IMG/VR virus record: IMGVR_UViG_3300029288_000063
Location: 32,001-96,000 of that record
From: a virus
Lineage: Duplodnaviria > Caudoviricetes
Strand: one strand, 5' to 3'
DNA length: 64,000 nucleotides
In this document: positions 1 through 43,302 of the stretch, piece by piece
Numbering within the stretch: the first letter of the stretch is position 1
How the letters are laid out: the number at the start of each line of letters is the position of its first letter
Program-made: the position numbers and the translations under genes
Notes under the pieces: model-generated
What the model was told of the DNA's origin: nothing
What the model saw: the letters and a program-made list of their open reading frames with translations, nothing else
Databases searched by the model: none

Positions 1-81
1 GTTTCGGCTGGTTAAGCACCTTCGGATTAGCTGTCATTGATTTTTTCTGGCAGGGCAATTATGCCCGTAAGGAGGTTGTTG

Positions 82-582
82 ATGAGCGGCGATGTGTCCT
101 TCTCAACGAAGGTGATTGACGGCGTACGGATTTGTGACGCGTCGGATGGCTCGTTTCACTATCGGTTTGACATCAAGAACGGCAACTTCATGCGTTGGGG
201 CAAGACTCCGGCGGAAGACCCGGTGTGGTGTCCGGCGGGACCGGAAATCCTCGACCTCGAAATCAGTGTGAACGGATGTCCGAATAACTGCCGCTTCTGT
301 TTGCCAGCGGGAGTTCCTGTGAATACTCCGTCTGGACTTGTGAATATTGAAGACCTACGAGTTGGAGACAAGGTTTTTGGATTCAACTTTGCAACAAGTT
401 CTGTTCGTGAAGAAGTGGTAGAGCAGATTCACAATCGAGAATACGAAGGTCTTATGGTTGTTGTTGAGTTAGAAGATGGTCGTATTGTTGAGATGACAGA
501 AGATCACATGGTTATGCTTGCTAGTGGCAATGAAGTTCGTGCTGGTGATTTGACTCCGGATGATGATGTTGTTCTTATGTAA
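82..582 (+). CDS. Radical SAM protein N-terminal half fused to split-intein N fragment (IntN)
   Basis: AGGAGG RBS before ATG 82. The extein ends ...EISVNGCPNNCRF (first two Cys of CxxxCxxC), then CLPAGVPVNT...IEDLRVGDKV...TEDH (intein blocks A/B), then stop at 580-582. Confidence 0.9.
   Translation: MSGDVSFSTKVIDGVRICDASDGSFHYRFDIKNGNFMRWGKTPAEDPVWCPAGPEILDLEISVNGCPNNCRFCLPAGVPVNTPSGLVNIEDLRVGDKVFGFNFATSSVREEVVEQIHNREYEGLMVVVELEDGRIVEMTEDHMVMLASGNEVRAGDLTPDDDVVLM
298..579 (+). other. Split intein N-part (94 aa)
   Basis: Starts with Cys1 (CLPAG), has block B TxxH (MTEDH) and ends at a stop with no C-terminal HN. Confidence 0.9.
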
Positions 583-621
583 ATTTTATATCCTGTTTAA
601 CATGGAGGTTGTTATAAGTCC

Positions 622-1614
622 ATGTGTAAACTAAAGGAGAATAAAATGTACATAGGTGTCGGAGAAGCTGCCAAGATATTGGGTAAATCCACCGATTTGG
701 TTCGGTGGCTTGAAAAAACGGGGAAAATCAAATCTGTTCGTGTTGGAAAAAAGAACAACAGAAGGTTTCTTCTTTCTGATATTCAATCTCTTGCTCTTGA
801 AAGAGCAAGCCCCGAATATGTAAAGCAAACGCTTCTTTGCCCCAATTGTAAAAACTTTGTTGCTGTCAAAATGGTAAAGAAGCGTCCAAATATAATGTTG
901 GAAAGGATTGGTTCTAAACGGTGCCATGACTGCATCGAGAAACAAAAAAAGAACAACTCTTTAAGAATGTCCCGGATGAACCCAATGAAGCAAGAAGGGG
1001 TTGCTGAAAAGGTTAGCTCTACTCTAAAGAAAAAATATTCGGAAGGTGTTATTGCCGTTTGTCATTCCACTGAGACAAAAGAGAAGATAAAAGATGGTAT
1101 AAATGCATTTTGGAATTCTGAAAAAGCAGAATCGGTAAAAATTAGATTTTTTGAAAGAATGTCTCAGAACAATCCTATGTCTATCCGTTCGATTGTTGAA
1201 AAGGTTCATTCTAAGTTAAAGGCAATGAGGGATAAAGGTGAATTTGTAACTCCAAAAGGAATAAATCACTGGCTATGGAAAGGAAATCGTGGATTTTATT
1301 CTTTTGTTCGTTCGCAGCTTTATCGCCCGTGGTCTCTTGAGGTGTTGAAGCGAGATGGGTTTTGTTGTTCGTCTTGTGGTAAAACACAATGCGAACTACA
1401 TGTTCATCATGTAAGGCCGTTTCGTGATATTGTTAAGAAAGTATTGTTTGAAGAAAAGATAGATGCCAAAAATCTTGAAAAATTAAAAGATATTTGGCAG
1501 GATCTCTCCGATAAGGTATTGAGAGAACATAAGCTAGAAGACGGGGTTTCTGTTTGTGTTTATTGTCATGGGAAAATAGATTCCCGATACAGGAGATATA
1601 AAGGTGAAGATTAA
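622..1614 (+). mobile_element. Free-standing HNH homing endonuclease with N-terminal MerR-like HTH, inserted between split-intein halves
   Basis: VGEAAKILG...VRWLEKTGKI HTH; CPNC/CHDC Cys pairs; C-terminal RDGFCCSSCG...LHVHHVRPF...VCVYCHGKID HNH; visibly AT-richer than its flanks. Confidence 0.85.
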
Positions 1615-1708
1615 GCATATCGTTAAGACACCATTCAAGGGGACTGTTTACGATATTGGTTGTAGTCCAGACCATGTTTTTTTTGCGAATGGTCTTCTTG
1701 TCCATAAT
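1604..1708 (+). other. Split intein C-part (35 aa)
   Basis: VYDIG (block F) and LVHN (block G) followed by Cys+1; size and pattern match DnaE-type IntC. Confidence 0.9.
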
Positions 1709-2575
1709 TGCTACAAGGGGAACACGAATGCCCCGGCTGAGAACATGACGTTTGAAACGTTCAAGGCAATCTTCGACAAGATGCCGAAGACGCTGACGCA
1801 GATTGCGTTCGGCATTACTGGCATTCAGACGAATCCGGACTTTTTCAGGATGATGGAGTATTGCCGCGAACACGACGTGGTTCCGAACTTCACCATGTCA
1901 GGTATCGACCTTACCCCGGAGATTGCAGACCGCGTGGCGTCGCTTGCCGGTGCGGTTGCGGTGTCTGTATATCAGACTGACAAGAACGTTGGCTACGACG
2001 CCATCAAAATGCTGACAGACCGTGGCATGGAACAGGTCAACATTCACCTGATGGTGAGCGAGGAGACTTTTTCTTTCGTCAAAGAGGTTGTTGTTGACCG
2101 TATGTCCGACAAGCGTCTTGAGAAGATGCGGGCGATTGTGTTCCTTGGTGTAAAGCCGAAGGGTCGTGCACGTGGCTCCTATTCGCCGCTTGGTCGTGAT
2201 AAGTTTTCGACGCTGGTTAAGTTCTGTCTTGGTGCCAATGTGCCGATTGGTTTTGATTCGTGCAGTGCACCGAAGTTTGAGAGCTTTCTTGATGGGTCGA
2301 ACATGAACCCGGCGCTTAAGGAGCAGCTCCGTATGGTTGCGGAAAGCTGCGAGTCGACTCTGTTCAGTAGCTATGTTAACCAGAAGGGTGACTTCTATCC
2401 CTGCTCGTTCTGTGAGGGTGAGGGTGAGTGGGAGAACGGTGTTTCTGTGTTGGATGCGGAAGATTTCGGTGACGTGTGGCTTCACCCGCGTGTTGTGGCG
2501 TGGCGTGAGCGGTTGGTTGATTCGTCGTGTAATGGTTGCCGCAAATGTATTGTTTTTCCAGAGATTAACGTCTGA
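1604..2575 (+). CDS. Split-intein C fragment (IntC) fused to radical SAM C-terminal half with SPASM/twitch-like Cys cluster
   Basis: MKIKHIVKTPFKGTVYDIGCSPDHVFFANGLLVHN|CYKG; downstream rSAM barrel and C-terminal SCES...PCSFC...CNGCRKC. Confidence 0.9.
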   Translation: MKIKHIVKTPFKGTVYDIGCSPDHVFFANGLLVHNCYKGNTNAPAENMTFETFKAIFDKMPKTLTQIAFGITGIQTNPDFFRMMEYCREHDVVPNFTMSGIDLTPEIADRVASLAGAVAVSVYQTDKNVGYDAIKMLTDRGMEQVNIHLMVSEETFSFVKEVVVDRMSDKRLEKMRAIVFLGVKPKGRARGSYSPLGRDKFSTLVKFCLGANVPIGFDSCSAPKFESFLDGSNMNPALKEQLRMVAESCESTLFSSYVNQKGDFYPCSFCEGEGEWENGVSVLDAEDFGDVWLHPRVVAWRERLVDSSCNGCRKCIVFPEINV

Positions 2576-2589
2576 GTGGAGATTCAAAA

Positions 2590-3582
2590 GTGTTGACGCT
2601 TCTTGACTGTTTTTGCGGTGCCGGGATTGGTGCCGTTGGTGCAAAGGCTGCTGGCTTTCAAACCGTGTTTGCCTTTGATAACGACCCTGTTTCCGTTCGT
2701 GTGTTCAATAAAAACAACAACCCAGTTGCTTCCGTTTTGGATGCGAGGAAGTTGGATATTGCAAAGGACTTGCCGTCAACGGATGGGATTATGGCAGGCT
2801 TCCCGTGTAACTCCTTCTCGACAAGCGGTAAGCGGCTCGGAGTGAACGACTCCAAGTATGGAAAGCTTGGGTATATTATGCTGGACATTATCAGCCAGAA
2901 GTCACCGAAGTTCTTCCTCCTTGAAAACGTGAAGGGGCTGGCTTCAAGCTCGCACAAGGAATTCTTCGACGAACTCAAAAAGAAGCTCGTTGGGTTCGGT
3001 TACAACGTATATGCGGGGCTTCTGAACGCGGCAGACTATGGGGTTCCGCAGAAGCGCGAGCGTGTTTTCATTGTCGGTATCAAACCTGACTTGGATAAGG
3101 GCTTTGAGTTTCCCAAGAAAGCTCCCAACAAGGTCTCAATCCGTCAAGCGTTGGCTGGGTTGCCGTGCACGCCAGATGGGGTTAATAACCATTATGGGTT
3201 CGAACTCAGAAACGACGAGAAGCCGTTCGCCCACAAGATTCCTGACGGCGGCAACTGGAAAGACCTTCCTGAAGCTGACCAAAAGGCGTTCATGAAGAAG
3301 TCGTTCTTTTCGTCTGGCGGGAAGACAACGTATTTGCGAAAGGTCGACCCCGAAGAGCCAGCGTTCACAGTGATGGCTCACGTTATGGGGAAACACAGCG
3401 TTCAGTTGTATGGAAACAGAAGGTTCACCATCCGCGAGAGTTTGCGGATTCAGACCGCGCCGGATTGGTTTTCGTTCGATGACGACATTCCGGTTCAGAA
3501 GCAGTATGCTTGCTGCGGTGGTGGGATTCCTTCGCTTTTGGCGAGGCAAATTTTTGAATGCATTCGTCTTGCGTTAAAATGA
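2590..3582 (+). CDS. dcm: C5 DNA cytosine methyltransferase
   Basis: Motif I FCGAG, motif IV GFPCNSFS, motif VI ENVKG, motif VIII QKRERVF. Confidence 0.93.
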   Translation: MLTLLDCFCGAGIGAVGAKAAGFQTVFAFDNDPVSVRVFNKNNNPVASVLDARKLDIAKDLPSTDGIMAGFPCNSFSTSGKRLGVNDSKYGKLGYIMLDIISQKSPKFFLLENVKGLASSSHKEFFDELKKKLVGFGYNVYAGLLNAADYGVPQKRERVFIVGIKPDLDKGFEFPKKAPNKVSIRQALAGLPCTPDGVNNHYGFELRNDEKPFAHKIPDGGNWKDLPEADQKAFMKKSFFSSGGKTTYLRKVDPEEPAFTVMAHVMGKHSVQLYGNRRFTIRESLRIQTAPDWFSFDDDIPVQKQYACCGGGIPSLLARQIFECIRLALK

Positions 3583-3649
3583 GGAGCGGTTTAAGTAGTA
3601 TAATTCGTCAAATGATACTTGTTTTTTATGGATGAGTGGAGGAACTTTC

Positions 3650-4039
3650 ATGAAGGTTCGTTTTGGATTTGTGAGTAACAGCTCAAGTACGAGTTTCTGC
3701 ATCGTTGGTATAGGAGACGATATCTCCGTCAAGGACATTTTCAAACATGTCGTCGAGAAGGAGAACATTCCACTCGAAGAAGCCTACGACATGTTTGGTT
3801 GTGGTACTGAGGAAATTGGTGGTTTGGTTTTCACAGGTCACCCGGCGTACGACTGCACCTCTTGGGAGGATTTTCTTGCAAACTCCGACCTCGACTATGT
3901 TGGGGTTGATGCTGAAAAAATCCTCGAATCCGCCTCCATCTCCCAAGCACGCCAGAAGGTTCGCGCCATCTTTGCGGAAATTGGTGTTGACGTGCCCGAG
4001 AAGAGCATTGGTCTCCACTACGGCGAGGCGTCAAACTAA
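3650..4039 (+). CDS. Hypothetical protein, FVSNSSS N-terminal motif family (copy 1)
   Basis: MKVRFGFVSNSSSTSF start; GGAGG RBS; TATAAT upstream. Confidence 0.8.
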   Translation: MKVRFGFVSNSSSTSFCIVGIGDDISVKDIFKHVVEKENIPLEEAYDMFGCGTEEIGGLVFTGHPAYDCTSWEDFLANSDLDYVGVDAEKILESASISQARQKVRAIFAEIGVDVPEKSIGLHYGEASN

Positions 4040-4221
4040 TGAAAAGAATTAAGTGTACTTGGTGCGGGAAAGCGGTGTCGTCACCGGTGCCTGATGATGT
4101 GGTGATTCGGGCTGTCATTGAATGCCCGGAGTGTGTCCTGAAGCGGAAAGCGAATAATCCGCCGGGCGATATCAACGAAAGGAAGGATGATGAAGGTTCG
4201 TCAGGGTTTTGTAAGCAATAG
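4039..4221 (+). CDS. Small Zn-ribbon protein
   Basis: CTWC...CPEC; TAATG overlap with the upstream gene. Confidence 0.55.
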   Translation: MKRIKCTWCGKAVSSPVPDDVVIRAVIECPECVLKRKANNPPGDINERKDDEGSSGFCKQ

Positions 4222-4570
4222 CTCGTCAACGTCGTTTCTGATTGGAACGACGGAGCCGATTTCGTTTGAGTTTCTATGTCGTGTGATGCGCGTCGAGGAG
4301 AGTCCTGCCAAAAAGATTCTGGAGTCTCTCGCCCGATATGTTTCCAAACACGTGAAGCAGCTTGACGCGAAGAAGTGGTGTGATGACCATTACTCGGAAT
4401 CGGTCCCGCCGGTGTTCACACGGATGGCTGCGGGTTTTCCGAACCTCTATTCCCTTAGCGTGTCAAATTGTGATGATGGTGAGGGCAATTTCCTGTATGA
4501 AGTTTTTCAGGAAGAGGTGGACGTTATCAAGTCGGCGGAAATCGAGATGTCGATGCCGTATGGGGATTGA
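4187..4570 (+). CDS. Hypothetical protein, FVSNSSS family (copy 2)
   Basis: MKVRQGFVSNSSSTSF start. Confidence 0.8.
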   Translation: MMKVRQGFVSNSSSTSFLIGTTEPISFEFLCRVMRVEESPAKKILESLARYVSKHVKQLDAKKWCDDHYSESVPPVFTRMAAGFPNLYSLSVSNCDDGEGNFLYEVFQEEVDVIKSAEIEMSMPYGD

Positions 4571-4573
4571 ATT

Positions 4574-4861
4574 ATGAAGGCTCGTTTTGGGTTTGTGTCC
4601 AACAGCTCGTCGTGCTCGTTCGTCTTGGATGTCTCCGGGCTTCGGAAAAGCCAGAAGAACAAGATTCTCCACCACGAGGAGTTTGCAGAAAACATAGGCT
4701 GGGATGGCGCGTGTCGTGGTTGGGGGTGGGAAATCAAAGAGGATGGCGACAAGTGGTTTTGCAATACCTCGCTTGACAATTTCGATCTTGTTCGGTGGAT
4801 TGTCGAGGTTGTTGGTTTGTCGCCTGACCGCATGTCTGACATGCAGGAAGGACATTGGTAA
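4574..4861 (+). CDS. Hypothetical protein, FVSNSSS family (copy 3)
   Basis: MKARFGFVSNSSSCSF start. Confidence 0.8.
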   Translation: MKARFGFVSNSSSCSFVLDVSGLRKSQKNKILHHEEFAENIGWDGACRGWGWEIKEDGDKWFCNTSLDNFDLVRWIVEVVGLSPDRMSDMQEGHW

Positions 4862-4987
4862 AAACACGACTCGGTTTTGTATCCAACAGATCGTCCTGAC
4901 TAGATTCGAGCGGATAATTGTTCCGAGTTTTTAGTCCTCGATGCGATAGTGTCACATTAGTATTCTTTTTGCCGAGAGGATGAAGCT

Positions 4988-5866
4988 ATGCCGATGGAAA
5001 TTCAGTCCCTGTCGATTTGTGTTCCCACCCCGCGTTGTGTAAACAACTGCAAGTTCTGCGTCTCCAAGATGGGCGATAACGCCTATCCCAACCAAATCGA
5101 AAAGAACAAACGGTTCAGCGACCTGTATCGGCGCGACTTCATCCGCCGTTTACAATTTGCACGAGACAACGGGTGTAATACGGTTATTCTGACCGGGGAC
5201 GGTGAGCCGCTGTCCAATGTCGACTTTCTCGACAAGTTTTCCGAATGGAACGAGAAGCTGACCTCGCCGTTCCAATGGGTCGAGGTCCAGACATCGGGCG
5301 TCCTGCTGGACGAAGAGATGCTTCGTCACCTTCGGAATATGGTGGGCGTGTCGACCATCGCCCTGAGCCTGTCGAACATTTTCAATTCCGAAAGCAATCA
5401 CGAAATGAACCAGACGCCCGAGAAGCTTCGGTTCGACATCGACCACCTGTGTTCGGAAATCAAGCGGTACGATTTCAACCTGCGCCTATCTCTCAACATG
5501 ACGGACGTTTATAGCAGTTTGACACTGTGGGAGATTTTCAGCCGTGCGAAGATTCTCGGAGCAGACCAAATCACCTTCCGCGTGCTTTATGAGTCTGGCA
5601 CCGGAACGGAAGAAGACAAGTGGATTAAGAAACACCGCTGCAACCCGTACAAGATTGAGCAGATTAGCAGGTTCATCAAGAAAAACGGGCGCGAGTTGGA
5701 GGTTCTTCCGTTCGGCGCGACACGGTATTCTGTGGATGGGATGTCGGTGGTGCTGGATGGCGACTGCATGTCCGGCGCGGTGAAGCCGACGATTCGGTAT
5801 CTGGTTCTTCGCCCCGACTGCAAGCTGTATACGAAGTGGGACGACAAGGGAAGCAAGGTGTTTTGA
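4988..5866 (+). CDS. Radical SAM protein
   Basis: CVNNCKFC (CxxxCxxC) and LTGDGEPL (GGE-like motif). Confidence 0.9.
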   Translation: MPMEIQSLSICVPTPRCVNNCKFCVSKMGDNAYPNQIEKNKRFSDLYRRDFIRRLQFARDNGCNTVILTGDGEPLSNVDFLDKFSEWNEKLTSPFQWVEVQTSGVLLDEEMLRHLRNMVGVSTIALSLSNIFNSESNHEMNQTPEKLRFDIDHLCSEIKRYDFNLRLSLNMTDVYSSLTLWEIFSRAKILGADQITFRVLYESGTGTEEDKWIKKHRCNPYKIEQISRFIKKNGRELEVLPFGATRYSVDGMSVVLDGDCMSGAVKPTIRYLVLRPDCKLYTKWDDKGSKVF

Positions 5867-6114
5867 TGGCGATTGCAGACCATTATCCAGTAGGGATGTC
5901 GTTTTGTGACGAAGCCGGGCTTAACGGGAATTGTGGGGTCAAGTGTTCGCGTTTTCTTGAGGGTGAGTGCCCAATCGAGACGGATGTTACAGAAGATATC
6001 ACGGACGAGGTTTATGGTGAGATTGTCTATGATATAACAGATGATTGTCTTTGTGATAGAATCGAAAAGATTATTTTAAATGGATTTGACAAGAATTCTA
6101 TCCAGAAAAAATAG
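5866..6114 (+). CDS. Cys-rich hypothetical protein
   Basis: TGATG coupling to the upstream gene; several Cys. Confidence 0.55.
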   Translation: MAIADHYPVGMSFCDEAGLNGNCGVKCSRFLEGECPIETDVTEDITDEVYGEIVYDITDDCLCDRIEKIILNGFDKNSIQKK

Positions 6115-11717: not shown

Positions 11718-13703
11718 ATGGCATTCAGCGTAAACGCACAAGAAGTTGGTTACACGTCAGCCGCCCGGTTCATCGCATCTGACCGCGACACGCGGGTCAT
11801 GTTTGACGCGGTTGGCTGTGCACCGCACGCCGAAGGCTTGCTGGAAGGCGACACGGTTCACACTCTTCACCTTGGCGTTTGCCCCGTCCTCCCATCGGAC
11901 ACCGATAATCTGCTTCTGACCACGGCTTGCTGGCACGAAGCCCTTCACATTCGCCATTCGTGCGGGCTTCGCAAGGAAGAGTTCCCGCAGGGTTCCCTGC
12001 ACACGATTATGAACAGCCTCGAAGACAACCGCATCGAACGCTACGGCGCGGAAGAGTATGCCGGTGTTGGACCGATGATGCTTGAGTCGTCGATTTACTA
12101 CAACAAGAAGATTGGCGCACAGATTAGCACCGGCGAGGTTGACGCCCCATTGTGGGAAGCGGTTTGCGCGATGGATATGATGGAGCGTGGTTTGGTTCCG
12201 TCGTGGGTGCTGACCCCGAAGGCTCAGAAATACGTCGATGCGGCGTATGAGCTGTATGTCCAGATTCGCAAGATTTCTAAGGCTGACGGGATTCGTGCGG
12301 TTTTGGCGCTTGCGAAGGAAATCCACAAGAAGCTGGTTGAGGTCAACAAGGACATCGAAAAGGAATCCAAGCCCGAGCCGAAGAAGGAAAAGTCAGATAA
12401 GAAGGAAGGCGAAGACGAAGGTGAAGGTGAAGGCGAAGGCGAAGGCGAAGGCGAGGAAAGCGGGAAGCCCAGCGCCGCCGGTGATATTGAATCCGAGGAG
12501 GAAGAATCCAAGGGTGCCGGTTCGTCCGATGATTCTGAGGAGTCGGAAGAAGACGAAGAAAAGTCATCCGGCTTAGAAGCCGAAAATACCGAAGACGGCG
12601 AAGACGAGTCTGATGGTTCCGACAAGACGTCCGAGGAAGCCGAAGACAAAGCCGCCGAGGAAGCCGAAGACAAAGCTGCCGAGGAAGCCGAAGACAAAGC
12701 TGCCGAGGAAGCTGCCAAGGCGAAGATGGACGAAGAGGTGAAGGGTGGCAAGGACAAGAAAGATACAATCTGCGAAGATGTCCAGAAGAAGGTTGATGCC
12801 CTGCCAGCCGCCGAACGCCAGTATATTCCCGACCGTTGCAACGACCGCATCGAAATCATCGAAAAGCGTTCCGGTGACGACGAGCTGTATCGTGAGGGCT
12901 TGAAGCAGGTGTCCGGCAAGGTTGCCGTGATGGGTTCTGTCATCGAACAGGCGCTTCGGGCTATGGCGAAGAAGAAGATTCGCCCGAACCGCGAAGCTGG
13001 GATGCTGGACGAAAACAACCTCGTTGCCGCCGCCCGTGGGCTGACCAAGGCTGTGTTCAAAGACGAGGTTGACGGTTCCAAACTGAACACGGTTGTGTCG
13101 TTCGTGATTGATGAGTCTGGTTCGATGTGCTATGAAGACCGCGTTAACCAGACCCGCCTGATGGTTATGGCTCTCGGTGAGGTTCTGTCGCGGTTCGGCA
13201 TTCCGTTTGAGGTTCTCGGCTCGACGACCACGGAAGAATACAATAAAGCCCTTTATAACGCGAGTGGCTTTACTCGGACGAACCCGCTGTGGATGCGTGT
13301 TTACAAGGGGTTCAGTGAGTCGTGGGTTGCCGCCCGTGGCAAGGTTATGCAGACGGCTGCCCGGAACAACAACATTGACGGCGAGTGGGTTGAGTTTGCC
13401 GGTCGTCGGATTGCGAAGCGCAAGGAGCGTCGGAAGATTGTGTTCAGCCTGTCGGATGGTTGTCCTGTCTCCGGTCACGGCGCAGACATCGACCGTGGAG
13501 CGATGCGGAAGAACATCATCCGCACCTGCGAGCGCCTCCGTAAGTCCGGCATCGAGGTTTACGGCTTCGGTATCAGAACCGATGAACCCAAAGCCCTGTA
13601 TGGCGAAAAGTTCTTTGTCGGTCTTGATAGTGTCGAGAAGATGGGCGAGAAGTTTTTCCGCGAGTTTGCCGCCATTCTGACCAACGGAGCGATTCGGGTT
13701 TGA
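11718..13703 (+). CDS. CobT-like protein: N-terminal HExxH-like domain, long acidic linker, C-terminal vWA
   Basis: WHEALH...NSLEDNRIE; E/D-rich linker; MIDAS DESGSM and LSDG. Confidence 0.85.
   Translation: MAFSVNAQEVGYTSAARFIASDRDTRVMFDAVGCAPHAEGLLEGDTVHTLHLGVCPVLPSDTDNLLLTTACWHEALHIRHSCGLRKEEFPQGSLHTIMNSLEDNRIERYGAEEYAGVGPMMLESSIYYNKKIGAQISTGEVDAPLWEAVCAMDMMERGLVPSWVLTPKAQKYVDAAYELYVQIRKISKADGIRAVLALAKEIHKKLVEVNKDIEKESKPEPKKEKSDKKEGEDEGEGEGEGEGEGEESGKPSAAGDIESEEEESKGAGSSDDSEESEEDEEKSSGLEAENTEDGEDESDGSDKTSEEAEDKAAEEAEDKAAEEAEDKAAEEAAKAKMDEEVKGGKDKKDTICEDVQKKVDALPAAERQYIPDRCNDRIEIIEKRSGDDELYREGLKQVSGKVAVMGSVIEQALRAMAKKKIRPNREAGMLDENNLVAAARGLTKAVFKDEVDGSKLNTVVSFVIDESGSMCYEDRVNQTRLMVMALGEVLSRFGIPFEVLGSTTTEEYNKALYNASGFTRTNPLWMRVYKGFSESWVAARGKVMQTAARNNNIDGEWVEFAGRRIAKRKERRKIVFSLSDGCPVSGHGADIDRGAMRKNIIRTCERLRKSGIEVYGFGIRTDEPKALYGEKFFVGLDSVEKMGEKFFREFAAILTNGAIRV
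12633..12716 (+). repeat. 3.5 x 24-bp in-frame tandem repeat (EEAEDKAA)
   Basis: gaggaagccgaagacaaagc(c/t)gcc at 12633, 12657 and 12681, plus a partial copy. Confidence 0.9.
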
Positions 13704-20365: not shown

Positions 20366-20551
20366 TTGAAAAGGTTGCCGTGTACTGTGAAGCAGATGTG
20401 TAAGATGCTTCGTTCCGGTATGTCGCCGGATGACGTCGTTGCGTGTTTCGACCATGAGGACGCGGATGTTGTTAGCGACATTTTTTCCAAAGCGCACAAA
20501 ATGGCATCGCACAAAGAAAGACGGGATAAAACCCAGCGAGAAGACGTATAG
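20366..20551 (+). CDS. Hypothetical protein
   Basis: Short packed ORF. Confidence 0.45.
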   Translation: MKRLPCTVKQMCKMLRSGMSPDDVVACFDHEDADVVSDIFSKAHKMASHKERRDKTQREDV

Positions 20552-20588
20552 TTCTTTACTTCTGTATTTGTTTTCAAAAGGAATTGCT

Positions 20589-23189
20589 ATGTCTAAAAGC
20601 AAAGAGGTGAATCAGCGAGACCTGTCTTATAGTGGTTGTTACGGGTCTGTCGTGTCGTATGCCGAGGTTGGTGAGTTTCTGCAAACCAGTTTCCATATGA
20701 ACCGGCTCGCCGAAGAGCACGGTGACTCGCGTTATGCCGCCTGTATTTGGGGACACCCCGGTATTGGGAAATGTGTGTCTGGAGACACACTGGTTAAAAC
20801 ACAACATGGGGTTGTTGAGATTGCATCGTTATTCGATGGCATAGAGAAAGAGGGGTTCTACCCTGTCTCTGATTTGTTTTTGGCAACGAGGAAAGGGGCG
20901 GAACCTGTAAAGTCACTGTATTTTTCCGGCCGGAAAAAAGCTATCCGTATTAAAACAGACTTCGGTCGAGAACTTGTCGGGAGTGAAATTCACCCAGTTC
21001 TCTGTGCTTCTGATAATTTCCGTTGGAAGACCTTGAGTGAAATCTGTATTGGTGATTTTGTTGTAGTTCGTGGATTTCCTCTTGATTCACAGAACTGTTC
21101 TCTTCCTGCGTTTCCGTCTCCTCGTCCGAGACAGAAATCTGATTTTTCAATTCCGAAGAAAATGAATCCGGACCTCGCGTTCATCCTTGGGTGTCTTGTT
21201 GGTGAAGGGAGTGTCTCTGGAGACATCATCGCCTTTACTCAAGCCAAAGATAAGTTGTTGGCCTCTGCTTTTGTTAAGAAGTTCAAGAGTTTGTTTGGTG
21301 TTGGTGTTTCCGAGGAACATGATAGGCGTACAGAAAACACCTACAACTTTCGTTGTTTTCGCTCCTTGCTTCGTCATTGGCTTGAATTGATTGGATTGGG
21401 TCGTGTTTGTTCGTCGAACAAAGAAATACCTTGGAGTGTTCTGTGTTCCTCCGCTACATCGCAAAAGTCGTTTCTAAAGGCACTTTACGAAGGGGAAGGG
21501 ACGAACGAGGTGTGTGGTATTTCGTTGTCGTCTGCCTCGAAGCGTTTGCTTGAACAAGTCTCGACCATCCTTCTTGGGTTCGGAATTCAAGCTTCGTTAT
21601 CGTTTCGGGTGGTTGATGGAACTACCTATTGGAATCTTCTTTGCAGTGGGGAAAATGGACGCCTGTTGAATGAATTGATTGGATTTAGCAGGGCTTCCGG
21701 TAAGTGGACGAAGGTAGTTGGTTCGAATCCCAATAAGGGAGGGGTTCCGGCAAAGATAGCTTGTGAAATGTTGTTGTCCATGAAGGATAGTCATTTGAAT
21801 AATGGCGGGAAATTGTCGAAGAAGATGATTCACTCGTCTCCTCTCAACAAGATTTACAACCAGAAACATCTGCCGCAGATTCTTTCTGTCACGCTGGTCG
21901 AAAAGATTATGAAAATCTTCAATAAAGCAAGTAACGAGACACGCTCTGTTGTTGAAGATTTGCTTCGGTCAAAGTACGAGCGTGTTGTGTCTGTTGAAGT
22001 TGTTGATGATTTGCCTCTTTACGATGTGACAATGGACACAGAAGAGCATGAGTTTTTGTCGAACGGATTCGTTTCCCACAATACCGCAATCGTGAAACAG
22101 CTCGCCAAATGTCCGGTCGAATGGAATGGGAAAATGTATCCCGGATATCACGTGTCCGACGTTCCCGTTGCACAGTTCGAGGAAATGGGCGACCTGCACG
22201 GTATCCCGATGGACTGTGTGCTGATGCGCCAGCCGTCGAAGAAGGATGCCGGTGAGTTCATCACCCAGTGGGTTGCGCAGAAAGACCAGATTATCCACAC
22301 CTACCTTGCCAATGGCTGGGAGATTGATACATCGGTGCAGCCGACCACAAGGTATGCCCCGCCGGATTGGGTTCCGACCACACCCGGACCATCCATCGTT
22401 CTGTTTGACGATTGGAATCGTCCGTCTCTTCGTGTTATCAAGGGTATGATGCAGCTCCTGCAAAACTTCGGCATGGTGTCGTGGAAGCTGCCTCTCGGCT
22501 GCAATATCGTTCTGACAGGTAACCCCGATGAACAGGACTATCTCGTCACATCAATCGACACGGCGATTGTGACCCGTATTCGCCATATTACCCTGAAGGA
22601 AGACATGGCGGAGTGGGCTGTGTGGGCTGAGGCGTCCGGACTGGATGCCCGTGGGATTTCCTATGCCCTGCGTTATCCGGAAATGATTACCGGTATCGGT
22701 CGTGAGCGCACCAACCCGCGTACATTTTCGGAGTTTTGCCGGTTCATGCGGCATATTGGCACCGAAGACAAGGAACGCCTGATTCGGCATGGCATGTCGT
22801 TGTTGGACGAACAAACCGTGTCGAACATCATCGTGTTCTTCGAACGTGAGCTTGAACTTGTTATCGAGCCGGATGAAATTCTTGCAGGTGACGATTCCGC
22901 GTTCAAGGCGATTGAGAACCTGATGTCGCGCAAGGAACCCCGTGTGGATATTCTTGGGGTTATCTGTGAACGCCTGTTTGCCCGTATTGTCCAGCCGGGA
23001 TTTACCATCGAGAAGCCGAAGGTGGCGAACTTCCACAGGTTCCTCGAAATGGATTGTGTTCCCGAGGACGTGCGTTATGGGTTGTGTCACCGCATCACCA
23101 AGCGTGGCAGTCCAGAGTTGAACAGGTGGCTTGTTGGCTCGAAAAAGCTCCAGAAAATTATCGCCTCCACGCTTCGCCTTCCTGCTTGA
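20589..23189 (+). CDS. MoxR-like AAA+ ATPase with a LAGLIDADG intein in Walker A
   Basis: WGHPGIGK|intein|TAIV reconstitutes GxxGxGKT; Walker B LFDDWNR; TGNP; NPRT. Confidence 0.88.
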   Translation: MSKSKEVNQRDLSYSGCYGSVVSYAEVGEFLQTSFHMNRLAEEHGDSRYAACIWGHPGIGKCVSGDTLVKTQHGVVEIASLFDGIEKEGFYPVSDLFLATRKGAEPVKSLYFSGRKKAIRIKTDFGRELVGSEIHPVLCASDNFRWKTLSEICIGDFVVVRGFPLDSQNCSLPAFPSPRPRQKSDFSIPKKMNPDLAFILGCLVGEGSVSGDIIAFTQAKDKLLASAFVKKFKSLFGVGVSEEHDRRTENTYNFRCFRSLLRHWLELIGLGRVCSSNKEIPWSVLCSSATSQKSFLKALYEGEGTNEVCGISLSSASKRLLEQVSTILLGFGIQASLSFRVVDGTTYWNLLCSGENGRLLNELIGFSRASGKWTKVVGSNPNKGGVPAKIACEMLLSMKDSHLNNGGKLSKKMIHSSPLNKIYNQKHLPQILSVTLVEKIMKIFNKASNETRSVVEDLLRSKYERVVSVEVVDDLPLYDVTMDTEEHEFLSNGFVSHNTAIVKQLAKCPVEWNGKMYPGYHVSDVPVAQFEEMGDLHGIPMDCVLMRQPSKKDAGEFITQWVAQKDQIIHTYLANGWEIDTSVQPTTRYAPPDWVPTTPGPSIVLFDDWNRPSLRVIKGMMQLLQNFGMVSWKLPLGCNIVLTGNPDEQDYLVTSIDTAIVTRIRHITLKEDMAEWAVWAEASGLDARGISYALRYPEMITGIGRERTNPRTFSEFCRFMRHIGTEDKERLIRHGMSLLDEQTVSNIIVFFERELELVIEPDEILAGDDSAFKAIENLMSRKEPRVDILGVICERLFARIVQPGFTIEKPKVANFHRFLEMDCVPEDVRYGLCHRITKRGSPELNRWLVGSKKLQKIIASTLRLPA
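20772..22082 (+). mobile_element. Cis-splicing intein with LAGLIDADG homing endonuclease (437 aa)
   Basis: CVSGDT...IHPV...LGCLVGEGS...LKALYEGEG...LYDV...VSHN|T. Confidence 0.92.
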
Positions 23190-32932: not shown

Positions 32933-34615
32933 ATGGGTGATGCGCCGAGAGTTGTGATTTTGTCGTTTATTCCCCAGTATGGGGAGTTGACGTTTTTCAT
33001 TGGTGACAAGAAGTATGTTGCCAGTGGTGTTTCACCGTTTCACAAGAAACAGGTTGAATATATGTTGAAGCACGGTGCGAATGGACGTGCCATTAACTAC
33101 CTGAAGAAATTCAACCCGGAAAGGCTTGGTCAGAAGTTGGCGAAAGAATTGGTTGGTGTTGCAAGGTTGTTGTTGGCGTCCAGTTCGGAGAAAGAGGTGG
33201 AGCGGTTGCTTCGTGTTGTTTTACGGGGCACACAATGGGCAGGAAAGGCGCACGCCGTTGGTGGCTATGTCCGGGACGAGTTCATGGGTTTGGACGCGAA
33301 AGACTTGGATATCGTCGTTTCTGTGCCGGGCGGGTCTGAGAAGTTGACGAGGTATTTGTTCGGGTTGTTTCCCGGCTCCATAACCAATCCGCACCAAATG
33401 GGCGCGTCATATCCAATTTGGCAGATAACGTTCAGGGATGATATTGTCTTGGACGGTGAGGTCTATAAGACAAAGGGTGCGGTGATTGAGTTTGCTGATA
33501 CCATGAAGGAGCAATTCCCTGATGATACGTCGCGTCAGCGGAGTGTGCAGCCGGGGACGCTTGAGGAAGATATCGAGCGTCGTGATTTCACGACGAATAT
33601 GCTTTTGAAGGACCTTTCGACCGGTGAGATTGTTGATCTTACCGGTGTGAGTAAGAACGACATCGAGAAGGGTATCCTGCGCGGGCACCCCCGTGTTTCG
33701 CTGGATAAGATTTTCAGTGACGACCCATTGCGGATGATTCGACTTGTTCGGTTTCAGTGCAAGTATGGGTGGTCTATTCCGAAATCGGTTTTGCGGACAG
33801 TTCAGCGTAATGCGAGGCGGATTGAGATTGTTTCGGCCGAGCGCATTATGGGTGAGCTGACAAAGGTTATGAAGATTGGTAAATTGTCACAAGCCATCCG
33901 CCTGATGAAAATCACCGGGCTGTTGCAGTACGTGTTGCCGGAGGTTCAGGCGATGGTCGGGGTCAAGCAGCAGAAGGAGTTTCACGCCGAGGGTGATGTG
34001 TTCCGTCACACGTTGGCTGTTTTGCGTAATGCCCCGGCGACGGTTGAAGGGCAGTTGGCGGCGTTGCTTCATGATGTTGGGAAACCGGCGTCGCAGGAGA
34101 TGGTTGGGGAGGCGATTCACTTCTATGGTCACGAAGAGGTTGGGGCTGAGATGGCCTCGGCAATCCTGTATCGCCTGAAGTTTGACGCGGCGACTATCAA
34201 GAAGGTTGTTTCTGTTGTTCGGAGCCACATGCGTCCGTATCACCTTGTGAAGTCGGATGGAAAGGCAATTCGGAAGTTCATTCGAGACCTTGGTGACGAG
34301 GTTGTTGATGCGGTTTTGGATCAAGCCGAGGCGGACGAAAAGGGCAGTTTGCCTGTTGGGGACGACGTGTCGGTTGTGCGGGAAAAGATTCGCAAGGTGC
34401 GTGAATCGCCTGTGCAGGTGAAGAAGTTGCCGGTTTTGAATGGTCGTGAGATTATGTCCATTCTTGGTATTGGTCAGAACGAAAGGGATAGGCTGCCCGA
34501 GATTGGTGAGGCGGGAAAGTTCCTTTTGGATTTGGCGGATGAATATGCGTCTCACGGTGAAGAGTTGAGTAAGGGAGATGCGGCGAAGGCTTTGAGGAAA
34601 AGGATGTCGTTATGA
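32933..34615 (+). CDS. cca: CCA-adding tRNA nucleotidyltransferase with HD domain and N-terminal extension/tag
   Basis: VGGYVRD...KDLD, EEDIERRDFT, DDPLRMIR, HAEGDVFRHT, LLHDVGK, GHE. Confidence 0.93.
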   Translation: MGDAPRVVILSFIPQYGELTFFIGDKKYVASGVSPFHKKQVEYMLKHGANGRAINYLKKFNPERLGQKLAKELVGVARLLLASSSEKEVERLLRVVLRGTQWAGKAHAVGGYVRDEFMGLDAKDLDIVVSVPGGSEKLTRYLFGLFPGSITNPHQMGASYPIWQITFRDDIVLDGEVYKTKGAVIEFADTMKEQFPDDTSRQRSVQPGTLEEDIERRDFTTNMLLKDLSTGEIVDLTGVSKNDIEKGILRGHPRVSLDKIFSDDPLRMIRLVRFQCKYGWSIPKSVLRTVQRNARRIEIVSAERIMGELTKVMKIGKLSQAIRLMKITGLLQYVLPEVQAMVGVKQQKEFHAEGDVFRHTLAVLRNAPATVEGQLAALLHDVGKPASQEMVGEAIHFYGHEEVGAEMASAILYRLKFDAATIKKVVSVVRSHMRPYHLVKSDGKAIRKFIRDLGDEVVDAVLDQAEADEKGSLPVGDDVSVVREKIRKVRESPVQVKKLPVLNGREIMSILGIGQNERDRLPEIGEAGKFLLDLADEYASHGEELSKGDAAKALRKRMSL

Positions 34616-36507: not shown

Positions 36508-38235
36508 ATGGGTACGATGAAGGGTATTGTTAAGAAGGCTGTTGCGAAGGCGAAGCTCCCCTCGGAGTGTCCGGATGCGATGGTGAACCGTGCAGGCGGT
36601 GTTGCGTTTGACATTTCCGACCCCGCCACGAAGCTTCTGACTATGACCGGTGGCAGCTTTTTCGCGGAACCGCGTTACTACAGTGACTCGGCGTGCCGCC
36701 CGAAGCGTCTGGCGTCCGGCAAGTTCGGCAAGCTGGAAGAGCGTCTGCGTCTGGCGTCCGACAAGGCCGCGAAGTTCGTCAACTGTGAAGAGCTGGATGA
36801 TGTTGCGAAGGAAATCATCGCGACGGCTGTCGATGTGGCGAATGGTTCCAGTCCGCGTGACTTGCTTGCGCTGGCGAACTGGCTGCGCAACGAGGGCAAT
36901 ATCCGTCTGACGCCGCAGGTGTTCCTTGTGCTGGCGTCACGTATGGAAGGTTCGAAGCCGTACGTGAAGAAGTACGTCGAGAAGATTGTGAAGCGTCCGG
37001 ACGAAATCAAGACCGTTCTGATGCTGTACCGTTACTTCTTCGGCATGAAGTGTCTGCCGAACGCGCTGGCGACCGGTCTGTCCGACCGTCTGTCCAAGAT
37101 TGGCGAGTCCGCCTTGATGAAGTACGATGGGAAGGACTTCCCGACGTGGAAGGACGTTTTGTGCTGGCTGCCCCGTGAAAAGGGTTGGCCGCTGTCCGAT
37201 GACCTTTCTGTTTATTTCAAGAAGGGTGTCGTGACGGACAAGACCCCGATTGCTCGTGACCGTTCGCTTCTGGCGAAGTGTGGTGAGTTCGACGCCAAGG
37301 CGCGTGCTCTTGCGAAGTCGTCCAATGTTAACTGGGAGGTTCTGCTCTCGCAGTTCGGCACGAGCGACTCCGGCAAGAAGGCTGTGTGGGAGTTCCTGAT
37401 TGCGGAAGACCTCGTCGGTTACATGGCGATGCTCCGTAACCTGCGGAACCTCGTTCAGGCGGGTGTTGGCAAGGACACGCTGAAGAATGTGTACGACAAG
37501 CTGTCCAATGCCGAAGAGGTCAAGCGGTCGAAGCAGCTTCCGTTCCGGTTCCTCGCCGCGTACAACGAGTTGGAGCATGTCGGTGCGTCCGGAAACATCT
37601 CCAAGATTCTGGAGGCTATCGAGAACGCGACTGAGGTTGCCATCGAGAATTGCCCGAAGTTCCCCGGCAGCACCATCGTCGCCGTGGATGACTCCGGCTC
37701 TATGGGAGCCGGAATCTCGCGGATGTCCTCGATGACCGCCTTCGACGCGGCGTGTTCGCTCGGTGCCATCTGTGCGCGTCGTGGTGAGGATGTCAACCTG
37801 TGGGCGTTTTCGGATGGTGTCCGTGAGGTCAATATCACGAAGCACACGACCATGATGGGCATCGCCAAGAAGGTCGGTAATCACAGTGGTGGCACCAACA
37901 CGTACCTCGTGATTCAGAAGATGATTGACGAGAAGCTGTTCCCAGACCGTCTGTTCATTTTCAGCGACATGCAGGCTTGGAACTCGGGTTGGGGTTCCGC
38001 GAACTGTGCCGACCTGTGGGCGAAGTATCGGCGTATGGGCGCGGCGGCTGGCAAGACGTGGCTGCACAGCGTCAACATCATGGGCTACGGCGACACGCCG
38101 TTCTGTGAGGCTGACAAGCGTTTGAACCTCATCGGTGGCTTTAACGAGGCGGTTCTGTCGATGGCGCTCAAGGCTGAGGGTGTGAATGGGGAGGACAACA
38201 TTCCGCCCATGTCCTACATCCGCGATAATTTCTAG
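36508..38235 (+). CDS. Ro60/TROVE-domain RNA-binding protein with C-terminal vWA
   Basis: NRAGGVAF, RPDE, YMAMLRNLRN, LPFRF, DDSGSM, GGT, FSDMQ; GGAGG RBS. Confidence 0.92.
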   Translation: MGTMKGIVKKAVAKAKLPSECPDAMVNRAGGVAFDISDPATKLLTMTGGSFFAEPRYYSDSACRPKRLASGKFGKLEERLRLASDKAAKFVNCEELDDVAKEIIATAVDVANGSSPRDLLALANWLRNEGNIRLTPQVFLVLASRMEGSKPYVKKYVEKIVKRPDEIKTVLMLYRYFFGMKCLPNALATGLSDRLSKIGESALMKYDGKDFPTWKDVLCWLPREKGWPLSDDLSVYFKKGVVTDKTPIARDRSLLAKCGEFDAKARALAKSSNVNWEVLLSQFGTSDSGKKAVWEFLIAEDLVGYMAMLRNLRNLVQAGVGKDTLKNVYDKLSNAEEVKRSKQLPFRFLAAYNELEHVGASGNISKILEAIENATEVAIENCPKFPGSTIVAVDDSGSMGAGISRMSSMTAFDAACSLGAICARRGEDVNLWAFSDGVREVNITKHTTMMGIAKKVGNHSGGTNTYLVIQKMIDEKLFPDRLFIFSDMQAWNSGWGSANCADLWAKYRRMGAAAGKTWLHSVNIMGYGDTPFCEADKRLNLIGGFNEAVLSMALKAEGVNGEDNIPPMSYIRDNF

Positions 38236-41707: not shown

Positions 41708-41738
41708 GGTCAAGGGTTTAACCCTTGACCTTTTTTTT
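41708..41738 (+). terminator. Intrinsic terminator
   Basis: GGTCAAGGGTT/AACCCTTGACC plus T8. Confidence 0.8.
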
Positions 41739-41760
41739 ATATTCTTCCGTTATAGACAAC

Positions 41761-43302
41761 ATGGAGACTATTATGGAATCGGAAGAGAAAACTAGGTATA
41801 AGGCGATTTTTGATAGCCTGATGATGGGTGTTGTAATTATTGGTCAGGACTTTCGTATCGCCGCCTACAATGAACAAATGCGTGCTTGGTTTCCCGAAGT
41901 TCGTGTGGGGATGTTTTGCCACGATATTCTTGGTTGTGGCTCCGAGTGCAACGGCGTTGGTTGCTTGGTGCATCAAACCTTTATTGATGGGTGTCGTCAC
42001 GAAAAAAAGTTCCGGGTTGTCAAGGACGACGAAGAAATTAAGGTTTACAGGATGGTTGTGTATCCGATGCGTCAACCGAGTGGTGAACAAACTATTGCGG
42101 CTGCAATTAGGGTTGTTGAGGACGTCACGGAGTGTGCCAATCGTGAGGCGACGGATATTCAGACGCTTCAGTTGGCCGCCGTTGGTCAGTTAGCTGCCGG
42201 TATTGCGCATGAGTTCAACAATATAAACTCTGTAGTAAAGGGTCATCTTGAGTTGTTATACCAAGATGACTCGTTATCACAGAAGAATCGTGATCAGATA
42301 AAGGTTATGTTGGAGGTTGTTCGTCAGGGGATAGATATTACCAAGAACATGTTGATGTTTGCCCGTGACAGGAAGGGTCGTGCAACTGGTACGTTTATTG
42401 CTGATATTGTTCGTGACGTGCTCTCTATTATTAGTAACGACCTAAGGTCGGAGGGCGTTGAGGTTATTGTTGACCATCAACCGAACGTGCGCGTGTTGGT
42501 GAACGTGTCTCAGATGGGTCAGGTGATCATCAACTTGCTGCTTAACGCCCGGCACGCGCTTACAGGTAGGAACATAAAGCGATTGACGATTCGTTCGTGG
42601 TGCGACTCAAAATCGGCGTACATCTCTGTTGAAGATACAGGGTGCGGTATTGCTGAGAAGAATATCAAGAAACTGTTTAGCCCGTTTTTTACAACCAAGG
42701 GTGAACACGCCGAATCCGGTTCGCAGATGTCATATGTAAAGGGTACGGGGCTTGGGTTGTCGATTTGTCATACTATTGTCGAGAAACACCACTCCGGCAA
42801 GATTCTTGTGGAAAGCAAAGAGGGTGTTGGGTCAAAGTTTACGGTTGTTTTGCCGTTGTTTGAAGGTCCGGTTGAGATTAAAAAGAGCAGCACTGTAATG
42901 ATGAAAGCTCTTACTCCGGGTAATGGTGAAAGGGTCTTGGTTGTAGATGATGAGCCAAAGATTTCAAGTGTTATAAAAATGGTGTTGACGAATCAGGGAT
43001 ATTCCGTTGTATGTTGCTCTGATAGTTTAAAGGCTTTGAAGCTTTATAATGAGAAACCGTTTGACGTAGTTATTTCGGATATTAAGATGCCGGGTATTAG
43101 TGGTCTTGAGATGGCTGAATACCTGTATGAGATGAAACCGCGCCCGGTGACGATTCTTATGACTGGTGCCTTGCAGGATGAGGCGTCGGTGAAGCCTCCT
43201 AAAGCAGATGCCATGCTGACTAAACCATTTGCGTTTGAGGATATGCTGGCAATTATTAGTTTAGGTCTTTTTGGTCGTAAATCAGCAAAAGATATTGCCT
43301 AA
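41761..43302 (+). CDS. Cytoplasmic hybrid sensor histidine kinase (PAS-HisKA-HATPase-REC)
   Basis: AAGIAHEFNN (H box), NLLLNA (N box), EDTGCGI, FFTTK, GTGLGL; receiver VVDDE...SDIKMP...MTG...KPF. Confidence 0.93.
   Translation: METIMESEEKTRYKAIFDSLMMGVVIIGQDFRIAAYNEQMRAWFPEVRVGMFCHDILGCGSECNGVGCLVHQTFIDGCRHEKKFRVVKDDEEIKVYRMVVYPMRQPSGEQTIAAAIRVVEDVTECANREATDIQTLQLAAVGQLAAGIAHEFNNINSVVKGHLELLYQDDSLSQKNRDQIKVMLEVVRQGIDITKNMLMFARDRKGRATGTFIADIVRDVLSIISNDLRSEGVEVIVDHQPNVRVLVNVSQMGQVIINLLLNARHALTGRNIKRLTIRSWCDSKSAYISVEDTGCGIAEKNIKKLFSPFFTTKGEHAESGSQMSYVKGTGLGLSICHTIVEKHHSGKILVESKEGVGSKFTVVLPLFEGPVEIKKSSTVMMKALTPGNGERVLVVDDEPKISSVIKMVLTNQGYSVVCCSDSLKALKLYNEKPFDVVISDIKMPGISGLEMAEYLYEMKPRPVTILMTGALQDEASVKPPKADAMLTKPFAFEDMLAIISLGLFGRKSAKDIA

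Follow-up and report, generated by a model that had tools for sequence, protein, structure and literature searches.

A fractured radical SAM gene in a giant phage, with a naturally split intein and a putative HNH homing endonuclease cassette

How can a gene for an iron-sulfur enzyme remain useful when it is broken within its cluster motif? This question is raised by the first 2.6 kb of a 64,000-nucleotide stretch of giant-phage DNA (positions 32,001 to 96,000 of the IMG/VR record IMGVR_UViG_3300029288_000063, hereafter referred to as the window), in which a radical S-adenosylmethionine (SAM) gene is present in two parts within three open reading frames (ORFs), all on the + strand. We propose that positions 298-1708 represent a 1.41-kb selfish element inserted into a radical SAM/SPASM gene, namely a class 1 mini-intein broken in its loop by a cassette whose free-standing gene encodes a homing endonuclease of the helix-turn-helix (HTH)-HNH type. 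Trans-splicing and nuclease action are predicted activities, and we give this reading a probability of roughly 0.85. The fractured gene with its naturally split intein is regarded as real, and to judge from its sequence it is probably functional. The features of the locus are as follows, IntN and IntC being the N- and C-terminal intein halves, SD a Shine-Dalgarno sequence and GC3 the GC content at third codon positions.

69-75, + strand: SD AAGGAGG of the N-fragment gene, 6 nt ahead of ATG 82 (read from the sequence)
82-582, + strand: N-fragment gene (ORF A), start ATG 82, stop 580-582; the gene-caller product P0001 (166 aa) has the same start
82-297, + strand: N-extein, 72 aa, N-terminal beta-rich part of the radical SAM/SPASM protein, ending ..NGCPNNCRF; GC3 0.71
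298-582, + strand: IntN, 94 aa, with stop TAA 580-582; Cys1 at 298-300, block B TEDH, acidic tail DLTPDDDVVLM; GC3 0.28
575-655, + strand: predicted RNA hairpin in which the IntN stop region pairs with the SD (634-640) and AUG (646) of the HNH gene
579-1590, + strand: HNH cassette, 1012 bp, GC 0.37, delimited by DNA alignment of both junctions with a contiguous intein of another contig (L066)
646-1614, + strand: putative free-standing endonuclease gene (ORF B), 322 aa, stop 1612-1614; homologues at the same position in 11 loci
1591-1708, + strand: SD AGGAGA (1591-1596), start GTG 1604 and IntC (1604-1708), 35 aa, with basic head MKIKHIVKTPFKG, block F VYDI and block G LLVHN
1709-2575, + strand: C-extein, 288 aa, with stop 2573-2575; Cys+1 at 1709-1711, radical SAM barrel and Cys-rich SPASM/twitch C-terminus

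Splicing elements and host enzyme

The coding parts of the two exteins (82-297 and 1709-2572) lie in their original order on the same strand, 1.4 kb apart. The N-extein ends with ..EISVNGCPNNCRF, which holds the first two cysteines of the CxxxCxxC motif, and is directly followed by IntN (coding region 298-579), which opens with CLPAGVPVNTP. ORF C (1604-2575) opens with the 35-aa IntC MKIKHIVKTPFKGTVYDIGCSPDHVFFANGLLVHN, ending ..NGLLVHN, and continues with CYKGN. Thus, all residues of a class 1 intein are present, namely C1 (CLPAG), TEDH, VYDI, LLVHN and C+1. Pfam Hint matched ORF A with 32.6 bits (cut-off 29.7), and Pfam Intein_splicing matched both halves, residues 86-180 of ORF A with 25.8 bits and the first 35 residues of ORF C, corresponding to profile positions 122-155, with 18.2 bits. 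Sequence matches in the PDB comprised the BIL, gp41-1 and NrdJ-1 inteins for IntN and the C-terminal blocks of Spl DnaX, gp41-1 and NrdJ-1 for IntC; similarity of both halves to gp41-1 and NrdJ-1 is remote (E 0.05-0.3). IntN carries a net charge of -13, the first 13 residues of IntC one of +4. The original prediction, which had been made from the letters and their ORFs alone and had placed a 94-aa IntN behind CPNNCRF and a 35-aa IntC ahead of CYKG, is borne out by the sequence reading and by these profile matches.

Under the proposed mechanism, the three ORFs would most likely be co-transcribed, and the N-fragment (72-aa extein with acidic IntN) and the C-fragment (basic IntC with 288-aa extein) would be translated separately from their own ribosome sites. 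The intein halves would then dock and trans-splice, using Cys1 and Cys+1 as nucleophiles and cyclisation of the IntC Asn35, to give a 360-aa enzyme in which the +1 cysteine completes the cluster motif. The HNH protein would serve the element only, by cutting alleles that lack the element, into which repair would then copy it.

Comparison with the host gene family argues strongly for the restored motif. Both exteins belong to phrog_7293 in a PHROGs search, matching profile positions 30-86 (E 3.5e-8) and 75-360 (E 5e-75). Uninterrupted homologues, which according to the original prediction should be looked for, were found in 172 cultured T4-like phage records and at about 100 metagenomic loci that are uninterrupted at the intein site. 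One of these, RB16p156 ("putative radical SAM protein"), shows 45% identity to the window exteins over 283 aa and has the same cluster motif and the C-terminal SPASM/twitch cysteines, but like the other uninterrupted phrog_7293 proteins it is encoded by a single ORF. The sequence across the junction site is ..LCGF-CYKSN.. in RB16 and ..CLW-CYKSN.. in the IMG/VR locus L002. In an alignment of 74 uninterrupted metagenomic homologues C75, C79, C82, Y83, K84 and N86 are invariant, and the intein junction sits exactly ahead of the third Cys of CxxxCxxC. A hidden Markov model (HMM) built from these homologues matched the N-part at positions 20-71 and the C-part at 69-352. The exteins joined in silico (360 aa) gave one domain match of 519.7 bits that runs the whole length of the profile, free of gaps and indels, and the joined sequence ..GCPNNCRF-CYKGN.. 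aligned on the invariant CxxxCxxC-YK motif. The Cys+1 of the intein is therefore the third ligand of the [4Fe-4S] cluster in the joined protein, and the earlier proposal that joining restores C-P-N-N-C-R-F-C-Y, with the third ligand as +1 nucleophile, holds. The unspliced N-fragment already displays a complete CxxxCxxC as read from the sequence, with the intein Cys1 in third place; the spacing between Cys-3 and Cys1 in the window is C-x-x-C1 (C-R-F-C1).

Pfam Radical_SAM and SPASM matched full-length homologues, SPASM with 21.9-26.0 bits on L002 and RB16p156 (cut-off 21.5), and NCBIfam maturase models of the radical SAM/SPASM type, including TIGR04085 and MftC/DynA, matched the C-extein of the window. 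An alignment-based AlphaFold2 (AF2) model of the homologue L135 reached a mean confidence (pLDDT) of 95.5, and its best PDB matches were SuiB, anSMEcpe, CteB and SkfB (E ~1e-8, TM ~0.58); a single-sequence AF2 prediction for L002 gave a pLDDT of 48.7. By these family profiles and fold matches, the host enzyme is a predicted SPASM/twitch-type radical SAM protein, an assignment that does not separate full SPASM from twitch. The 253-kb phage record contains four other radical SAM genes, all uninterrupted.

The endonuclease cassette, its relatives and its origin

ORF B starts with an HTH at the N-terminus, contains a CxxC..CxxC ribbon and repeats resembling NPM/NUMOD, and has its HNH core (CxxC..HVHH..CxxCH) at the C-terminus. 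It matched PHROG HNH families with E values of 2.6e-9, 1.3e-4 and 4e-4, and Pfam HTH_17 at its N-terminus weakly (E 4.7e-5). Its preferred start is ATG 646, preceded by the SD AAGGAGA (634-640), although an upstream ATG at 622 is also open. Its end (1614) overlaps the IntC start by 11 nt, and the layout given in the earlier description, with an HTH-HNH gene filling the gap and overlapping IntC, proved correct. Thirteen homologues of ORF B share the core CxxC..[LV]HHV..CxxCH, their C-terminal parts containing ..NPM.., ..HxLWKGN.., CxxC, [LV]HHV, a spacer of ~50 aa, GI[TS]VCxxCHxxID and RYRRYKG. Their N-termini differ, with an HTH in the window and L067 and zinc ribbons in the others. The gene is single-copy in the phage genome; tblastn of its protein against 50,697 cultured phage records gave no match, and a PDB sequence search yielded no meaningful relative. 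An HNH gene of the same family was also observed in a third interruption of the radical SAM family, near C-extein residue 92 (L125:6496-7284 and L133:1395-2102), where intein halves were not detected. This occurrence at an extra site indicates that one nuclease family would target several sites of one gene.

The hairpin at 575-655 has a minimum free energy of -24.7 kcal/mol (z -4.28), and none of 200 shuffled sequences folded as stably. Hairpins with z <= -2.3 are predicted at the same place in six of eight related loci with different sequences. Since the structure covers the SD and AUG of the HNH gene, recurs in relatives and has a counterpart in the published drawings of fractured genes (Dassa et al. 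2009, PMC2677866), it likely restrains translation of the HNH gene. The RNA around the IntC start showed no significant folding (z -1.25).

The boundaries of the cassette emerged from the contiguous intein of L066, which is one open frame without the cassette, is 88% and 94% identical in amino acids to the two window halves (89-90% in nucleotides) and matched Intein_splicing with 45.0 bits (cut-off 35.8). The cassette supplies the IntN stop, its first bases creating ATG-TAA, the 5' untranslated region and the HNH ORF except for its last eight codons. These codons, together with the SD and GTG start of IntC, belong to intein DNA that is also present in L066 (..AGGAGACACAAAGGTGAAG..).

To see how widely the arrangement occurs, IMG/VR and JGI metagenome contigs were scanned with an alignment of N-fragments and searched by tblastn with the five parts of the locus, and the non-redundant loci were classified. 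The intein is carried by at least 14 lineages within this radical SAM family, and the order N-extein/IntN, HNH, IntC/C-extein was found in at least 11 other contigs, nine complete and two partial.

Complete layout with HNH homologue: L011, L013, L070, L072, L075, L076, L078, L080, L081
Partial layout with HNH homologue: L067, L068
Split without homologous HNH gene: L071 (80-nt gap), L012 (AP2-like remnant), L073 (unassigned 706-nt gap)
Contiguous intein: L066 and L010 (metagenome contigs), P0013 (protein database)

These relatives share 28-88% of their IntN residues with the window, and Cys1, TxxH, the position of the MKIK-type IntC start, the terminal HN and Cys+1-Tyr-Lys are kept in all 17 related loci. 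In L012, the place of the HNH gene between the intein halves is taken by a remnant of ~290 nt (5472-5763) with an AP2-like motif (..GVWQTNKNGGFQASIKYENEVFYLGTY..), probably a decayed endonuclease of another type.

A second split site was observed in the same family after ..FKAIFDKM (L010:4833-7917, identical with L069, and also L125, P0008 and P0012). The N-fragment there has a terminal tail of 47 aa (RIKVVRV..LREGDDVVNIE) that lacks both Cys1 and TxxH, the next ORF (392 aa) contains two repeats of the form SLDRID..GNIQWVHK, and the C-fragment opens with MIVKKVERHSFYQ-LTQIAFG, without HN or a +1 nucleophile. Since these tails are short and lack splicing residues, they may be a docking pair derived from a Hint domain. 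L010 combines this split with a contiguous intein at the first site.

In the window the base composition changes sharply at the element, with GC3 values of 0.71 and 0.63 for the exteins and of 0.28, 0.33 and 0.34 for IntN, HNH gene and IntC. The other carriers are mostly phages of low GC content, where element and host gene agree in composition. The element reads as foreign to the phage and as a recent horizontal arrival. Between the window and L066, dN/dS is 0.14 for IntN and 0.02 for IntC (dS 0.39-0.60), whereas dS of the exteins is saturated (2.3 or not computable) with dN 0.22-0.25 and omega ~0.11. Nucleotide identity, 0.9 at the junctions, drops over ~100 nt on the upstream side to 0.57-0.63 and over ~150 nt on the downstream side to ~0.7. 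An intein far less diverged than its host gene, with identity decaying into the flanks, corresponds to the pattern that homing with short co-conversion tracts should leave, although the conserved motif also accounts for some of the similarity in the flanks. Recurrence and the low dN/dS values against L066 together argue that the intein has been kept functional.

P0002, a protein from another sample, is 87% identical to L066 over N-extein and IntN and ends at the ..DDVVLM stop of the window; from this identical stop, it presumably carries the HNH cassette. In P0013 the contiguous intein reads ..DDVVVLK-MKIENIIK... In a tree of IntN (94 columns, midpoint root), the contiguous forms L066 and L010 branch from within split forms that bear an HNH gene (supports 87-100%). 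We therefore tentatively lean towards the view that contiguous mini-inteins, which in L066 and P0013 keep the IntC start codon in their loop, would be split inteins re-fused after loss of the HNH cassette rather than the ancestral state.

Weighing the alternatives

Several observations speak against the proposed element or weaken its support. The Intein_splicing scores of the lone halves stay below the Pfam cut-off of 35.8 bits, the matches above cut-off being Hint on ORF A and Intein_splicing on the contiguous L066. Pfam HNH did not match ORF B at E < 0.01, so the HNH call rests on the PHROG profiles and the motif. A scan of window positions 1-2700 revealed neither a sigma-70-like promoter nor a terminator signal above shuffled background, and co-transcription of the three ORFs is therefore an assumption. 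Finally, the record is an IMG/VR metagenomic assembly with an estimated completeness of 75%. This last point, together with the sharp difference in composition between element and flanks, might suggest that a contiguous HNH-containing intein or a chimeric read join has been mistaken for a split gene. At least 11 independent contigs, obtained from different samples, however, share the three-ORF layout, and their stops and restarts fall at identical intein positions; the sample that yielded P0002 has the same stop. Moreover, the HNH ORF is in the frame of IntN but is cut off from it by stops, and its frame differs from that of IntC. The independent recurrence excludes an assembly or annotation artefact for practical purposes, and we consider this explanation the least probable of all.

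It is also conceivable that the element simply broke the gene, that the halves no longer splice and that the radical SAM gene, now a pseudogene the phage can do without, is about to be lost. Parts of such elements do decay, as seen from the HNH genes of L075 (in-frame stop), L068 (frameshift) and L011 (shortened ORF), and the four other radical SAM genes of the phage could make this one expendable. Nevertheless, the splicing residues are intact in the window and in its 17 relatives over the whole range of IntN divergence, omega is low in both intein (0.02-0.14) and extein, both fragments keep an SD and a start codon with the IntC start position conserved, and no intact second copy of the interrupted gene was found in the record. 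Decay is thus improbable, though it is the strongest of the rivals. Slightly less probable still is reassembly without ligation, in which the intein halves would act as docking domains only and give a two-chain enzyme. Here precedents exist, both in Dassa et al. (2009; PMC2677866) and in the phage Aeh1, whose nrdA gene is split by an HNH gene (mobE-like) and whose NrdA halves assemble non-covalently (Friedrich et al. 2007; Crona et al. 2011, PMC3045599). The full CxxxCxxC that Cys1 provides in the unspliced N-fragment would fit such an enzyme, and the ..FDKM split tails without splicing residues indicate that docking-only splits may exist in the radical SAM family. If binding alone mattered, one would nonetheless not expect Cys1, TxxH, the terminal HN and Cys+1 to be strictly conserved throughout all lineages, and without ligation the third ligand and the SAM-binding barrel would be on different chains with an intein of ~130 aa wedged at the cluster. 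Like the window, Aeh1 has a free-standing HNH homing endonuclease gene between the halves of an enzyme gene on one strand of a phage, but it has no intein, whereas the splicing motifs of the window are complete. On these grounds we rejected the artefact, pseudogene and docking-only readings in favour of a split intein that would splice in trans.

Genomic context, known systems and significance

The genome around the element shows further peculiarities. The phage is rich in inteins, and three more were observed, all contiguous and with LAGLIDADG (window 20430-23189, window 54957-58037 and G000:C1:147151-148806, the last also seen as L003:328-1983). Their hosts are an ATPase (phrog_1297), a portal-like protein (phrog_16240) and a uracil-DNA-glycosylase-like protein (..NVVKC-LRYNT....VVVHN-CFTNQ), so that the radical SAM intein is the sole split one. 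The radical SAM stop is followed after 15 nt by the start of a gene for a C-5 cytosine DNA methyltransferase (2590-3582, Pfam E 3.6e-62). Behind it (3632-4861 and 4988-5866) come three small ORFs of 135, 127 and 95 aa with a common N-terminal K/RxRFGFVSNSSSxSF and no PHROG match, and then an uninterrupted second radical SAM gene (CVNNCKFC). Accessory genes unusual in a phage encode a CobT-like protein (11718-13703), a CCA-adding enzyme or poly(A) polymerase with an HD domain (32933-34615), a Ro60 homologue with TROVE and vWA domains (36508-38235) and a hybrid PAS histidine kinase/response regulator (41725-43302). Megablast of window positions 1-6000 against cultured phages gave no match.

Fractured genes of this layout have been known since 2009, when Dassa, London, Stoddard, Schueler-Furman and Pietrokovski (PMC2677866) described gp41, NrdA, NrdJ, IMPDH, DnaE, ligase and terminase loci from the GOS metagenomes. 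The window agrees with them in every structural respect, as the original prediction had stated: an N-part with IntN, a short spacer, a free-standing endonuclease ORF and an IntC with C-part follow each other in the same order on one strand, and the break falls in the loop that normally houses nested endonuclease domains. The oppositely charged halves, the hairpin in the 5' untranslated region of the endonuclease, the overlap of its ORF with the IntC start and the phage context are likewise shared. In contrast, the eight hosts of that study all belong to DNA synthesis or repair and its endonucleases are exclusively GIY-YIG and Vsr-like, LAGLIDADG and HNH enzymes being mentioned as ones that "could" fracture genes. 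A radical SAM/SPASM host and an HTH-HNH gene are therefore new relative to that work, and the two intein halves are only remotely like gp41-1 and NrdJ-1, which were first found in those loci (PMC2677866) and have since entered the PDB and the protein-engineering literature. Our search of full-text literature found nothing linking split inteins to radical SAM/SPASM enzymes and no description of a naturally split intein with an HNH locus of this type; Campylobacter and Thermus phage papers that contain both terms draw no link between them. Relative to the literature searched, the locus thus adds a new host family and a new nuclease type to the fractured genes. The earlier view of a radical SAM host as unusual stands in this sense, but within the family, with at least 14 intein-bearing lineages, the layout is not rare, and reviews report a contiguous intein in another radical SAM enzyme, MoaA.

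As far as the available descriptions go, this MoaA intein, from Pyrococcus abyssi, comes closest as a precedent for an insertion at this place. MoaA carries CxxxCxxC at its N-terminus. A disulfide between Cys-3 and Cys1 blocks splicing of its intein until reducing conditions return (Callahan et al. 2011, as described in PMC3922620 and PMC10663303). Read together with the cluster motif, the Cys-3/Cys1 pair in these accounts would place that intein ahead of the third cluster cysteine of MoaA as well. Both systems, as described there, involve an oxygen-labile Fe-S enzyme, a cysteine at extein position -3, a catalytic Cys1 and the same C-x-x-C1 geometry, but the MoaA intein is contiguous, archaeal and inserted in a different radical SAM family, whereas that of the window is split. 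By analogy, a Cys-3/Cys1 disulfide, or ligation of the cluster by Cys1, would block the first splicing step, such that the oxygen-labile enzyme would be assembled only in the reducing, iron-replete infected cell. Gating of trans-splicing by redox state or Fe-S loading is an attractive hypothesis, though rather unlikely.

The locus provides a new naturally split intein pair (94 and 35 aa, Cys1/Cys+1) that is remote from gp41-1, NrdJ-1 and DnaE, together with about 15 natural variants. The original prediction further supposed that the enzyme would be inactive without splicing and that the pair may be useful in biotechnology. Thanks to the arrangement of Cys-3 and Cys1, gating of the assembly of an oxygen-sensitive enzyme by redox state or cluster loading can be tested directly. 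Inteins insert recurrently at the third cysteine of the radical SAM cluster motif, and the fractured-gene layout is confined neither to genes of DNA metabolism nor to GIY-YIG and Vsr nucleases. Finally, the allele series of this one family, with uninterrupted, contiguous, split HNH-bearing and split forms with a decayed or lost HNH gene, is unusually complete and bears on how split inteins arise and possibly revert.

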